NCBI RefSeq assembly: GCF_044324785.1
Contig: NZ_CP172127.1
Direction: 5' to 3' (one strand)
Length of the DNA: 64,000 nucleotides
Origin: Escherichia coli
Lineage (GTDB): Bacteria; Pseudomonadota; Gammaproteobacteria; Enterobacterales; Enterobacteriaceae
In this document: piece after piece, positions 53,201 to 59,200 of the stretch
Layout: each line of letters opens with the position of its first letter
Numbering within the stretch: position 1 is the stretch's first letter
Position numbers: made by a program

Positions 53201-56200
53201 AGGAAGCCAGCGAACCTGCAAGCTGAAAGATGAAGGGTAAACGGAGACGAAATATGGCTTACCAATCTCAAGATATCATTCGTCGTTCCGCGACTAACGG
53301 TCTGACCCCCGCGCCTCAGGCGCGGGACTTCCAGGAAGAAGTGGCGAAACTCATCGACGTCACCACCTGTATCGGCTGTAAAGCCTGTCAGGTGGCGTGT
53401 TCAGAGTGGAACGACATTCGCGATACCGTCGGCAATAACATTGGGGTGTACGACAACCCCAATGATTTAAGTGCCAAATCGTGGACGGTGATGCGATTCT
53501 CGGAAGTGGAGCAGAACGACAAACTGGAATGGCTGATCCGCAAAGACGGCTGTATGCACTGTTCCGATCCAGGCTGCCTGAAAGCGTGCCCGGCGGAAGG
53601 GGCAATTATTCAGTATGCCAACGGTATCGTCGACTTCCAGTCCGAGCAGTGCATTGGCTGCGGTTATTGCATTGCGGGCTGTCCGTTCGACATTCCGCGC
53701 CTCAACCCGGAAGACAACCGCGTCTACAAATGTACGCTGTGCGTTGACCGCGTGGTGGTTGGGCAAGAACCGGCCTGCGTGAAGACCTGCCCAACGGGCG
53801 CGATTCACTTCGGTACGAAAGAGTCGATGAAAACGCTGGCGAGCGAGCGCGTGGCGGAGCTGAAAACCCGCGGTTACGACAATGCGGGTTTGTACGACCC
53901 GGCAGGCGTTGGTGGTACACACGTTATGTACGTGCTGCACCATGCTGACAAGCCAAATCTGTATCATGGCTTGCCGGAGAACCCGGAAATCAGCGAAACC
54001 GTGAAATTCTGGAAAGGCATCTGGAAACCGCTCGCAGCTGTTGGCTTTGCGGCTACCTTCGCGGCCAGTATCTTCCACTACGTGGGTGTCGGTCCGAACC
54101 GTGCGGATGAGGAAGAGAATAATCTGCACGAAGAGAAAGACGAGGAGCGCAAATGAAACGACGTGACACCATCGTGCGCTACACCGCGCCGGAACGTATC
54201 AACCACTGGATCACCGCCTTCTGCTTCATCCTGGCGGCGGTGAGCGGGCTTGGCTTTTTGTTCCCGTCCTTCAACTGGTTGATGCAAATCATGGGCACAC
54301 CGCAGCTGGCGCGAATTCTGCACCCGTTTGTCGGCGTGGTTATGTTTGCCTCGTTCATCATCATGTTTTTCCGTTACTGGCATCACAACCTAATCAATCG
54401 GGATGATATCTTTTGGGCGAAGAATATTCGTAAGATCGTCGTCAACGAGGAAGTAGGTGACACCGGGCGTTATAACTTCGGTCAGAAATGCGTTTTCTGG
54501 GCGGCGATTATTTTCCTGGTTCTGCTGCTGGTGAGCGGCGTGATTATCTGGCGTCCTTATTTTGCGCCTGCTTTCTCAATCCCGGTGATCCGATTCGCGT
54601 TAATGCTGCATTCATTTGCCGCAGTGGCGTTAATTGTGGTTATCATGGTGCATATCTACGCCGCCCTTTGGGTGAAAGGCACGATTACCGCCATGGTGGA
54701 AGGATGGGTTACCAGCGCCTGGGCGAAGAAACATCACCCGCGCTGGTACCGTGAGGTCCGCAAGACAACGGAAAAGAAAGCTGAATGAGTATTCGCATAA
54801 TCCCGCAAGATGAGCTGGGTTCGAGCGAGAAACGTACGGCGGATATGATTCCGCCGTTATTGTTCCCTCGGCTCAAGAATTTATACAACCGCCGCGCCGA
54901 GCGTCTGCGCGAGCTGGCAGAAAATAATCCGTTGGGTGATTATCTGCGCTTTGCTGCGCTTATCGCCCACGCCCAGGAAGTGGTGCTGTACGACCATCCG
55001 CTGGAAATGGATTTGACCGCACGCATTAAAGAAGCCAGCGCACAAGGCAAGCCCCCGCTGGATATTCACGTTCTGCCGCGTGATAAGCACTGGCAAAAGC
55101 TGCTGATGGCGCTAATTGCTGAGCTGAAACCTGAAATGAGCGGCCCGGCGCTGGCAGTGATTGAGAATCTGGAGAAGGCATCGACTCAGGAGCTGGAAGA
55201 TATGGCCAGCGCACTGTTTGCCTCTGATTTCTCGTCCGTCAGCAGCGATAAAGCGCCGTTTATCTGGGCTGCGCTGTCGCTCTACTGGGCGCAGATGGCT
55301 AATCTGATCCCCGGCAAAGCCCGCGCTGAATACGGCGAACAACGTCAATATTGCCCGGTATGTGGCTCTATGCCGGTGTCCAGCATGGTGCAAATTGGCA
55401 CCACTCAGGGGCTGCGTTACCTGCACTGCAACCTGTGTGAAACCGAATGGCACGTGGTGCGCGTAAAATGCAGCAACTGTGAACAGAGCGGCAAACTGCA
55501 TTACTGGTCGCTGGATGACGAACAGGCCGCGATTAAAGCCGAAAGCTGCGATGACTGCGGCACTTACCTGAAGATTCTTTATCAGGAAAAAGATCCAAAA
55601 ATCGAAGCCGTAGCAGATGACCTCGCCTCTCTGGTACTGGATGCGCGAATGGAGCAAGAAGGCTACGCCCGTAGTTCCATCAACCCGTTCCTGTTTCCGG
55701 GTGAAGGGGAGTAATCTCTGACGTTTTCCGGGTGGCGCAGGTCGCCCGGATTACAGTTCATAGGGTGTGACGACACCATCTCTCTTATTCCGCGTTACCA
55801 CCTCAAGCTATGCTGCCAGTGCCTGTTTTGCCTCAATTTTCACACTGAACAAATCGATAACAATATCGATATCAAATAGCCAAATCTTTTTGCCATTACC
55901 ATTCCTCGCGCAGCTTACGCTGGTATTCGACACCATCTTCCTCACTCCCTTGCCAGATGCCAAAAGCACTGGCTCTTGCTGTTTGCGATTGATTTACCAG
56001 GTATTGATCTACCGCTTCCCGTAATAGCTCCGCACGAGGAAGATTACGCTGCACCTCGAGATCATCAAGTTGCTTAAACAACTCATTCGATAAATCGAGT
56101 AAAATTCTGCCCATATCTATACCTGCCAGAGAGTTCATAAATATCTCGCCAATATCATTTTTGAATCTATGGAGAGAAAAGTACCCTTGCCGAATCTTTA

Positions 56201-59200
56201 AAGAAAGCTCATTTACGCATCATTTTTTATTTTTGCGAGGCGTTTTCCAGATATGATGTAACAGTTGCAGTTATTATAAGTTCAAGTAAAACAGCCTTGT
56301 ATTAATACCAGAATAAGGGCATCTGTTTTTTTATATTCAAGAATGAAAAATTTTTGTCATTCCTTATGCTCCTTACACTGATCATCAACACCAACTACCT
56401 CCCCCTTTTGCCTGCCTCCCTTTGCTTTACGCACCGGGAATTGCTGACGTTCCAGATATTGCTCTACCGCTTCGCGTAAAATTGCAGATCGTGAAACCTT
56501 ACGCCAGCCCCTAAGCTTGTTCAGCCGTTTAATTGCCTCTTCTGATAAATGAAGAAAAACCGTATTCATCGCCATTACCACCACCTTACATATATTACTC
56601 ATTAATGTATGTGCGAAAATTACGCCGAAAAATCATTTAAAAAAAGCGGATTTTTGCATGTCGTTTTGTTTTTGCGAGACGTTTTCCAGAAATAATAAGA
56701 ACGTTGCAGTTGTTTCATTTGTTAATCAAAAATGGTTTGGTTATCGCCCAGGATGAGATATGGGTGCTATAAATATATTATATTCAGGGATATTTATTTT
56801 TTGATTGGGTCTTCATTTGCATAATCTGAATGGTGTACCCGAAAAACGTCAGCATCCTAACAGCACCAGGATTTAAGGTGAAATTAATCATCCATCACAG
56901 ACCGTTCAATGCTGCCACCAACCGGTCTTTACTTGCTCATCGTTATAATTTTGTTGGTAACAGTTCGGGAAACAAGGAATTCCTTCCGGAACACCCCGGT
57001 ATCATCCGATAGCATTGACGTCAATCATCAGCGCGACGGTGAGTTTTTTTAATCGCATCATAGGATGGTAACGTTAAGCACGATTACGGGTCATAGTAAA
57101 ACTCCTGAGCAGGCGGCACTATGCCGCTTTCACAGGAGTTCTGAATGCTGGTGCTTTCTGTATGGCTTCGCCATGCCCCTCGCGGCTAAGTGCCTGCGCA
57201 CATCTCTCTTTGTATGTCATTTTTGCAATGCATTGGCCGAATTCTGGTAATTCTAATGAGTTTTACTCTTCAGACTCCCATCCCTACGGTATACGAGTTA
57301 GATTCATGAATGAAATCGACATTTTTAAAAAACGAATCTTGTAAAACATCCGTGTTGATATTACCTTGCAACCCAACATTAAATTTGTTAGAGAGATGAA
57401 GAACTCGAATATCAAAAAGGTCTTTTAACATCATTAATTCTTCGGGTGTTAATGAATCGCAACTAAAATATCCCTGTTGATCAAAAAGATTTTCTATTTC
57501 TCTACCATCGGCGAGGCGTTTTTCAAGGAGTGTTTGCAACATCGAGTTGCCAAGGACAATGGATATCGTGCGATCTTTCGCAGATTTACACCCCATCACA
57601 ACGGCAACATTCGTATCCCCCTCAGGAGTTTCATTTATCGCCGTCGCTAAAATGGTGGTCAAACACGCAAACGGAACTGTATTTCTTTCGTGATTTAATT
57701 TATCTACCAGTTCATTCCATTTATCAAAAGCCGGGCTATATTTGTTGCGCACAGTAATATCCGATTGGTTAAACAATTCAGCCATGCGATTTTTTATCAT
57801 CTCGATATCCGGCGAACCAGAAAGACTTTGCGCATAATACGGTCCTGATGATGTTGCATACATTAAAGCCGATCCCACGCCTGTCGCCATGATGGGCGCA
57901 GCTACGGTTTTGGCAAGGGCGACGCTGCGATGGCTATGCGCTTCACAGGCTAAAGGAACATATTCCACTGACTGCGGTAATTCCTTACATGCCTCCCTCA
58001 TCATTGCGGTATGCTTTACAAACAACGGTTTTTCACTGCCCAAAAAAACATTCTGCTTAATTGCGCTAAGAAAACGTAAATCAAAAATGATTGTTTTTGG
58101 TTTATTATTTTTTGGCACATTTCCCATTATCCCGCTAAGAACCTTCCTCGCTGCATGGAGATTTTTTTGCACAGCACATAACACAATTGACGAAGCCTTC
58201 TCTACTTCGTTATTGATTTTAATTTTAAAATCTGCCCGATATACGTTGACGGGCAATGCAAGTATATCTTGACCTACATCTTTGGCTGAGTATTTATTTG
58301 TGATCGACGGTCGTGAATCCACGAGAAAACTTAGCTGCAAATTATGCTCTATATTATCAGCTGTTTTTGTGGTGTGGTTAAACATAGAGATGCCACCTCT
58401 CATTCTTTCACACATATCATCAACTTTTTCACTTCGTTCTTGTGGCAATTTGGCTTTAACGTTAATTTGATGATTTTTACCGGTGCATTCCTTAACTACA
58501 AGAGGAACGTTATCTAAAGTGCCATACAGGCTAATAACGTCACCAGGATTTTTATCATGTAAGTAAGTTTGATTAATACTCGAAGCATTCACAAAGAGGT
58601 CAATATTATAACTGTTTATAACTTCACCTACATCAAATGTGTAGTGCTTACTCTGGAGGCTGCCATCCTTGTTTAATTGTATATCAATCAATATATCCCC
58701 GGACTTTGTCACCATATCTTTGCCATAAACCATTTGCATAGCCATTTCGAGGAGATTTTTATCTAACTGATTGCGGGCGTTGAGTAAGCGACTACCAAAT
58801 AATTTATATACTGTTCCCGTCATTGCCAGCGCTGCACTTTCTGGTACTTTGCGTTTCCACAGTGAGGTTTCTTTATTTTTAAATAGGTCATATTTATTAT
58901 TACTCGACAACCCGAGTTTAAGTTCGTTAACACAATCGCACAGTTGCTCCTCACCTTCCATTTTAAGGCGATGTGAAAAATCATTTAATAGCGTTTGCTT
59001 CGGTGATTCATTACTCATTAGCTGTTTTTCTAAATTAACAATAGAATAACTTTCTTGTTTAATGAGATTAATATTGGCAACCATTACAGCCTCCTTCCCA
59101 CGGTTTAAGAGCAAACATGCTACATAATTATTTATAACATCCAGAGCAGTAAATGAATGATACTGACAATGATGCCAGTCCATTATCTTTGCATAATGTT

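Follow-up and report, generated by a model that had tools for sequence, protein, structure and literature searches.

The genes yiiF and yiiE lie next to each other in a 64,000-nucleotide stretch of Escherichia coli DNA (contig NZ_CP172127.1, a 100% match to E. coli strain N3; this whole stretch is called the window below), and each is preceded by a near-identical upstream motif. Here, we describe the origin of the two genes and the probable role of the motif. Both genes derive from a decayed VapBC toxin–antitoxin module, an origin that the first-pass annotation of the window missed. In the account that we favor, with moderate confidence, this module has been left with an orphaned antitoxin gene (yiiF) and a duplicated one (yiiE), a conserved block within the upstream motif is a distal cis-regulatory site, and palindromes closer to each gene are the operators. 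The first-pass annotation was right about the paralogy and the joint duplication, and it probably took the wrong element for the operator.

The RefSeq gene order at the locus is fdoGHI-fdhE, two ‘CopG family’ genes, a split open reading frame (ORF) and fabY. As first described, yiiF and yiiE are tandem paralogs of the ribbon-helix-helix (RHH) type: both lie on the minus strand, and their products align at 39% identity over 71 amino acids (aa) in BLASTP (E 3e-11). The Pfam entry RHH_1 (PF01402) matches YiiE at 44.2 bits, above the cut-off of 20.5, and YiiF at 17.5 bits, slightly below it, and is present in YiiF orthologs at 70–80% identity. YiiF also matches PDB entry 2K5J (‘uncharacterized protein yiiF’) at E 1e-43. 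From these matches to solved relatives, and those to 7BY2 described below, we infer that YiiE and YiiF share the RHH fold. The tandem pair is found in ~76% of E. coli genomes.

The evidence that yiiF is an antitoxin gene comes from protein structures, orthologs and gene order. YiiF matches chain A of PDB entries 7BY2 and 7BY3 (E 3.6e-28), of which chain B is ‘Ribonuclease VapC’; as cited in PMC11117207, these entries belong to the Klebsiella pneumoniae VapBC study of Kang et al. (2020, J Med Chem). It is 75% identical to a Citrobacter VapB whose gene precedes a PIN gene, and its toxin-binding C-terminal tail is conserved and still recognizable. A scan of genome contigs with a single protein query yielded 14 close loci. 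In Citrobacter freundii, Salmonella diarizonae, K. pneumoniae, a Serratia-labelled contig and others, a single yiiF ortholog overlaps a PIN gene of 122–127 aa between fabY and fdhE, and for more distant, plasmid-borne relatives of YiiF (35–39% identity) the partner in most annotated records is a VapC-family toxin. Judged by its sequence and its neighbors, yiiF is thus the vapB gene of a VapBC module (RHH antitoxin, PIN toxin) located between fabY and fdhE in Enterobacteriaceae.

No overlapping PIN toxin gene follows the antitoxin gene in the window. What is left of vapC is recovered by tblastn as two pieces, corresponding to residues 7–27 (55817..55879, LFDIDIVIDLFSVKIEAKQAL) and 102–124 (55754..55807, LEVVTRNKRD-----GVVTPYEL); ~74 codons are gone and a stop codon stands between the pieces. 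With only this remnant present, the window contains a decayed VapBC module rather than a working one. Full-length vapC is kept in 57 of 5426 complete E. coli genomes. The order in E. coli 2016C-3878 is SopB-like ORF, yiiE, yiiF, vapC, fdhE, and an intact vapC is also found in Escherichia albertii, where it follows a fused RHH gene. In the yiiF-fdhE gap of K-12 (L002 ~2180-2340), a repetitive extragenic palindromic (REP)-type repeat, gccggatgcggcgtgaacgccttatccggcctac, replaces the N-terminal vapC remnant that N3 has kept, which indicates that E. coli lineages erased the toxin gene in different ways.

Selection on the two antitoxin-type genes appears to differ. For the orphan yiiF, the ratio of nonsynonymous to synonymous substitution rates (dN/dS) is ~1.2–1.3 where N3 is one of the pair (two comparisons) and 0.32 for K-12 against Escherichia fergusonii, each value coming from 11–16 differences, so that relaxed constraint on the toxin-less gene is no more than suggested; yiiF may be drifting in strains that have lost the toxin. 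For yiiE, dN/dS is ~0.23 between E. coli and E. fergusonii, with all amino-acid changes in the tail. The first 35 residues of YiiE are identical in E. coli and E. albertii (dN = 0, dS = 0.18), and its RHH domain shows no amino-acid changes across Escherichia. An unchanged domain at this level of synonymous divergence argues that yiiE is maintained, most plausibly as a gene for a DNA-binding protein.

Relatives of YiiE were found in Escherichia and Shigella only. The conserved toxin-binding tail of the VapB type is present in YiiF and absent from YiiE, whose own C-terminal tail is a degenerate version of it. The gene yiiE is an Escherichia-specific tandem duplicate of vapB together with its control region. 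The duplication preceded the loss of the toxin, and the unchanged RHH domain suggests that the extra copy has gained an independent function. In E. albertii and some E. coli, the pair is replaced by one fused gene that joins the N-terminus of YiiE to the C-terminus of YiiF (L022 2501-3093; L025 and L026 2501-2725), as expected from recombination between the tandem copies at their common REAV(D/E)QYL codons; it has the look of a domain swap that arose in nature. The two RHH genes are also not always adjacent, since in E. fergusonii additional minus-strand genes, including one for a DUF6708 protein, are inserted between them (L023 2906-4519; L024 2906-3355). The features of the locus are collected in the table.

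Table. Features of the yiiF-yiiE locus and of the neighboring ORF, in window coordinates
Feature	Position	Strand	Basis or remark
vapC (PIN toxin) pseudogene remnant, ~140 bp	55754..55895	-	tblastn with Citrobacter and E. albertii VapC queries
yiiF, predicted orphaned vapB-type RHH antitoxin gene, 80 aa	55896..56138	-	ORF; VapB matches
Decayed proximal promoter and candidate operator of yiiF, TGATATTGGCGAGATATTTATG (ancestral TGATATACTGGAGGTATATATG)	56141..56160	-	26-region alignment
Upstream block, yiiF copy, CTGGAAAACGCCTCGCAAAAA	56230..56250	-	Alignment; pattern search
Escherichia palindrome TGCAAC-T-GTTACA, yiiF side	56257..56269	-	TATAAT hexamer 5 nt upstream
yiiE, RHH paralog of vapB, 72 aa from the RefSeq start	56357..56575	-	ORF runs on to 56602
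yiiE-type proximal inverted repeat ACATACA-N11-TATATGT	56588..56612	-	Overlaps likely -10 (TAATAT); ends just before ribosome-binding site
Upstream block, yiiE copy, CTGGAAAACGTCTCGCAAAAA	56669..56689	-	Alignment; pattern search
Escherichia palindrome, degenerate half before yiiE, TGCAACGTT	56700..56708	-	
ORF of 637 aa, predicted SopB/SidF-like CX5R phosphoinositide-phosphatase fold, outside the RHH module	57270..59183	-	

The upstream motif is as similar between the two genes as first reported, once one of the quoted segments is shifted by one base: 56230-56275 and 56669-56714 are identical at 37 of 46 positions without gaps, and a 21-nt core, CTGGAAAACG[C/T]CTCGCAAAAA, at 20 of 21. The 16-mer TGGAAAACGYCTCGCA occurs exactly twice in the 64 kb, where 0.1 occurrences are expected. 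Upstream homology extends over ~115 nt, with a local alignment score of 73 against 20.1 +/- 2.6 for shuffled sequences (z = 20), and it begins ~27 nt upstream of the block and continues into the coding DNA, so that gene and control region were duplicated together. In the coding DNA of the RHH core, by comparison, 72 of 117 positions (62%) and only 16 of 39 third codon positions (41%) are identical. Compared with near-neutral sites that were part of the same duplication, the motif is thus much more strongly conserved.

To look beyond the window, we aligned 26 upstream regions from Escherichia (both gene types), Citrobacter, Klebsiella, Salmonella, Pseudocitrobacter and two further contigs. In the light of this alignment, the 45-nt motif is best described as two parts, a block of ~20 bp and an Escherichia-specific palindrome. 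The block reads TGGAAA-N4-CTCGCAAAA and is followed by an A-rich run, its two conserved hexamers lying one helical turn apart. TGGA and CTCGCA are invariant in the aligned regions, and the bases after TGGA are AA except in one lineage; the 4-nt spacer varies and the flanks have diverged. Placed 6 bp upstream of the block, the palindrome (TGYAAC-N-GTTRCA) accounts for the ‘gttgcagtt’ end of the motif. The two 21-mers of K-12 are identical, and the block copies of E. fergusonii and E. albertii differ mainly in the spacer and just outside the hexamers.

The block is equally invariant before single-copy vapB genes in at least six genera, including Klebsiella, Citrobacter, Salmonella and Pseudocitrobacter, and so it predates the duplication. 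By this comparison it is not a by-product of the duplication but an older piece of the control region that came from the ancestral vapB gene. The original proposal that each gene and its control region were duplicated as a unit stands, with a motif core that is older than the duplication.

The position of the block relative to the promoter can be read from a start site mapped for the K. pneumoniae ‘yiiF’ gene, 4 nt before the start codon (Kim et al. 2012, PMC3415461, supplementary file 5). The sequence upstream of it is ...GGTGATATACTTGAGGTA, with the start site 7 nt after TATACT and a TG in front of that hexamer, i.e. an extended -10 element. Proximal regions of the VapB/YiiF type share the sequence TGATATACTGGAGGTATATATG, which combines this extended -10 with a palindrome, ATATAC-N5-GTATAT. 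Numbered from the mapped start site, the palindrome covers -10 to +5, and the block, at about -107 to -88, falls outside the core promoter, ~95–96 bp upstream of the start. All 21 aligned regions of the yiiF type have 82–83 bp between CTCGCA and the -10 region. The yiiE type has a TATATG hexamer that matches the yiiF-type -10 position, at 84 bp from the block, and the sequence between has diverged. A sigma-70 promoter within the motif itself was rejected, since a consensus scan of the minus strand was empty and the candidate hexamers chosen by eye vary from species to species.

Each protein type has a proximal repeat of its own, ATATAC-N5-GTATAT for YiiF and ACATAYA-N11-TATATGT for YiiE, whereas the block is the same before both. 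The N-terminal strand of the RHH fold contacts DNA, and this putative DNA-reading strand is GRILLDLS in YiiF and NTVFLHLS in YiiE. E. coli 2016C-3878, with its intact vapC, retains the ancestral extended -10 and palindrome, and N3 and K-12, both with a dead vapC, have the decayed form TGATATTGGCGAGATATTTATG. Because they vary with the protein type and decay together with the toxin gene, the proximal palindromes are the better candidates for autorepression operators. The primary RHH operators would then be these -10/+1 palindromes, different for the two gene types.

In a pattern search of the loci collected, further copies of the block, in the same orientation, were found between an alpha/beta-hydrolase gene and a module that encodes a HigB-like protein (103 aa) and a NadS-type helix-turn-helix protein (96 aa). 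Such a copy is present in six loci, from Pseudocitrobacter, E. albertii, E. fergusonii, E. coli and one further contig, and stands 129–132 bp from the start codon in the four that were measured. The overall layout is thus block and HigB-like module, block and yiiE, block and yiiF-vapC. On its left side the block is flanked by sequence that changes with the context, on its right side by sequence specific to the module, and a weaker homology continues ~40 bp further left in all contexts. In two genomes, the block copies share 28 identical bp (L028) or 19 identical bp that include a substitution private to the genome (L013), as would result from duplication or gene conversion at this site. The insertion between yiiE and yiiF in E. 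fergusonii breaks ~70 bp upstream of the block and not at the block itself.

A BLAST search of the 5426 E. coli genomes with the block returned only the copies at this locus and one near-match. The near-match, TTCTGGAAAGCCGGTCGCAAAAG, is antisense within livM of K-12 (L150) and shares 21 of 23 positions with the block; because it is part of a coding sequence and its second hexamer is changed, we attribute it to chance. More than 120 pattern matches in a phage collection, none of them beside RHH, PIN or HigB-like genes, were likewise put down to chance, as was a third weak copy in the window with two mismatches (57510-57525), inside the SopB-like ORF.

A separate element was noticed beside the start of the divergent alpha/beta-hydrolase gene. 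A LexA-box-like sequence, CTG-N10-CAG (e.g. CTGTATGGATATACAG), is conserved there in Citrobacter, Klebsiella, Salmonella, E. albertii and Pseudocitrobacter (L003 ~3800-3815; L021 ~2312-2327; L022, L013 and L028, left of copy 1). It suggests an SOS-controlled promoter, pointing in one direction or the other. The window has no counterpart of this element.

In the account that we favor, the block would be a distal cis-regulatory site for some DNA-binding protein. From a fixed position ~96 bp before the start site, it would act on the promoter of each module, and it would mark the upstream edge of the functional control region. Its partner is more likely to be a host factor, or an RHH protein at an auxiliary site, than an RHH protein using it as the main autorepression operator. 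YiiE probably persists in toxin-less strains as a free-standing DNA-binding regulator.

Several observations weigh against this account. The dyad symmetry of the block is no better than chance, and to our knowledge it resembles no operator that can be named. It sits at break-points of synteny, and the sharing of 19–28 bp between copies would also fit a role in recombination or gene conversion. The sole mapped start site, supported by few reads, belongs to a different genus; a search of two E. coli datasets yielded none for yiiE or yiiF, and the supplements of Cho 2014 and Kim 2012 contain no E. coli start-site or sigma-binding data for these genes. The orphan yiiF dN/dS estimate is based on few differences, and any role of the Escherichia palindrome is pure inference.

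Other identities for the block were tried and rejected. Of the consensus sequences compared, those of PurR/LacI-family, IHF, Fis, CpxR, Ada, marbox, XerCD dif and DNA-invertase sites, none fits its invariant positions. A leader peptide across it would use a reading frame that differs between species. The region 55600-57400 gave no Rfam match at E <= 1.

In the view of the first-pass annotation, the motif may serve both genes as a common operator, with YiiE and/or YiiF repressing their own transcription. Autorepression is usual among RHH antitoxins, no other non-coding stretch common to the two genes is conserved as well as the motif, and its hexamers have the spacing that adjacent RHH dimer sites would have. 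In the yiiF type, moreover, the center of the block is ~94 bp, or ~9 helical turns, from the center of the palindrome, a distance that a VapBC oligomer might bridge, and the lineage with an altered first hexamer (TGGATG) is one in which only the fused gene with the YiiE N-terminus remains. However, the block lies off the core promoter, has no internal repeat, does not resemble the proximal palindromes, is identical before genes with different predicted DNA-reading strands, and is also found before the unrelated HigB-like/NadS module. With palindromes at the -10 region that follow the protein type and decay upon toxin loss, the common operator is disfavored, and we consider it unlikely.

We give rather less credence to a wider proposal, namely that some factor recognizes the block as the upstream edge of every toxin–antitoxin cassette between fabY and fdhE (HigB-like/NadS, yiiE and vapBC) and either couples their regulation or mediates cassette gain and loss. 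YiiE would on this proposal be a VapB-derived third component, now a stand-alone regulator that has outlived the toxin.

A more mechanical version, in which the block is a recombination joint and the fabY-fdhE cassettes are gained, lost and duplicated by crossover at it, strikes us as improbable. It is attractive in that each cassette of the layout begins with a block, the inserted HigB-like/NadS segment stands between direct repeats of the block, sequence from the hydrolase side lies left of copy 1 and sequence from the vapB side right of copy 2, and the copies in L028 and L013 share the identical stretches given above. The locus is a toxin–antitoxin hot spot in Salmonella too, with two HigBA-like modules in Salmonella Typhimurium (PMC3868539, a retracted paper used here for gene layout only). 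Against this, the block lacks an inverted-repeat core of the tyrosine-recombinase type, and none of the loci inspected contains a recombinase gene; the repeats bound the cassettes as in integron-like arrays, but without the dyad core or the recombinase gene of such arrays. The E. fergusonii insertion breaks upstream of the block, and the weaker homology on the left would fit old duplications of which the block is the most constrained part. The joint also leaves the fixed distance between block and promoter unexplained, and the block is equally conserved in genomes with a single copy.

That the similarity has no function at all, being residual identity from the duplication or the result of homogenization by gene conversion, is very improbable. 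Conversion could account for the identical 21-mers of K-12. A lack of function is, however, contradicted by a block that is invariant before single-copy vapB in at least six genera where its flanks are beyond easy alignment, and it does not sit well with third codon positions of the paralogs that are only 41% identical, or with copy differences in E. fergusonii and E. albertii that fall mainly in the spacer and just outside the hexamers.

Hardly credible, finally, is a sigma-54 (-24/-12) promoter of each RHH gene, for which TGG-N9-CGCA has the GG..GC spacing with the variable positions in the spacer, and a TCGC as in the -12 element of glnAp2; we rejected it on a weight matrix and on chromatin immunoprecipitation sequencing (ChIP-seq) tables. 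With a matrix built from 50 intergenic ChIP-seq-bound sites, the block scores 2.2–5.3 bits, true sites all score at least 7.9 bits, and between 178 and 543 other 17-mers in the window do as well as the block; the base after GG, moreover, is never A in the 50 sites. The main-text tables of the E. coli ChIP-seq paper list no yiiE or yiiF site, and one in nearby fdoI. The best matrix match in the window is 54306-54322 on the plus strand, inside fdoI (CTGGCGCGAATTCTGCA, 17.9 bits); it matches the intragenic site IS47 of that study and served as a positive control for the matrix.

The SopB-like gene does lie upstream of the RHH pair on the same strand, as first noted. Its 637-aa product has no sequence match in Pfam, NCBIfam, PADLOC or PDB, and an exhaustive HMMER search found ~20 full-length relatives, in which C532, D537 and R538 of the motif GCKSAKDRT are invariant. 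The ORF combines this CX5R catalytic loop with the fold of the SopB catalytic domain, and neither it nor 18 of its relatives match a relevant Pfam model such as the IpgD/SopB profile, so that it is predicted to be a SopB-type phosphatase by fold and not by sequence profile. The full ORF is present in only ~18% of E. coli genomes, and K-12 has a 117-nt pseudogene. We found no block or RHH-type palindrome upstream of it. Given this and the differing distributions (~76% of genomes for the RHH pair), a dedicated regulatory link, which the first-pass annotation raised as a question, is unlikely.

YiiF has been named among the uncharacterized transcription factors (PMC9308461, PMC4797297). A peak of RpoS holoenzyme in a SELEX (systematic evolution of ligands by exponential enrichment) study falls in the yiiD/yiiE spacer, at a resolution too low to assign it to the motif (PMC5493296). 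Overexpression of SlyA raised yiiE 2.5-fold, and the table that lists this effect gives yiiE two further letter codes, which probably stand for H-NS-binding datasets (PMC5797941).

Taken together, the locus is a tidy instance of the decay of a toxin–antitoxin module and not a new kind of system. Two long-unexplained y-genes of K-12 gain an evolutionary identity, yiiF as an orphaned VapB and yiiE as a duplicated one. The stepwise decay of a chromosomal module can be followed within a single species, as intact, fused and toxin-less states segregate in E. coli. In addition, a short cis element conserved across genera has been isolated, and a widespread E. coli ORF invisible to Pfam has been recognized as SopB-like by its fold.

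The resemblance of this ORF to known phosphatases is a distant one: it is only 11–12% identical to Salmonella SopB, Shigella IpgD and Legionella SidF and has no Pfam match at E <= 0.1. For the RHH genes, the closest counterpart is the K. pneumoniae VapBC module, which has an orthologous VapB (E 3.6e-28), the same position between fabY and fdhE, the upstream block and the same promoter architecture, and whose intact gene pair survives in a minority of E. coli. The window differs in having a ~140-bp toxin remnant, a decayed palindrome and the added yiiE upstream. As in other orphan antitoxins and decayed chromosomal modules, the antitoxin gene has outlasted its toxin, a pseudogene adjoins it and constraint may be relaxed. 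Here, however, the antitoxin gene was duplicated before the toxin was lost, and the RHH domain of the extra copy has stayed unchanged across Escherichia.

The lac operator O3, at -82, is an auxiliary upstream operator that acts by looping. Our conserved block is similar in its fixed distance of ~95 bp and in being roughly in helical phase with the yiiF-type palindrome, although, unlike a looping auxiliary operator, it does not resemble the proximal site. The omega-epsilon-zeta and paaR2-paaA2-parE2 modules are three-component toxin–antitoxin systems with a separate RHH regulator. The gene order of E. coli 2016C-3878 is comparable, with the RHH gene yiiE followed by antitoxin and toxin, and YiiE has lost the toxin-binding tail, as a dedicated regulator might. 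In contrast to those systems, VapB keeps its own RHH domain, so that two DNA-binding proteins are predicted at the locus.

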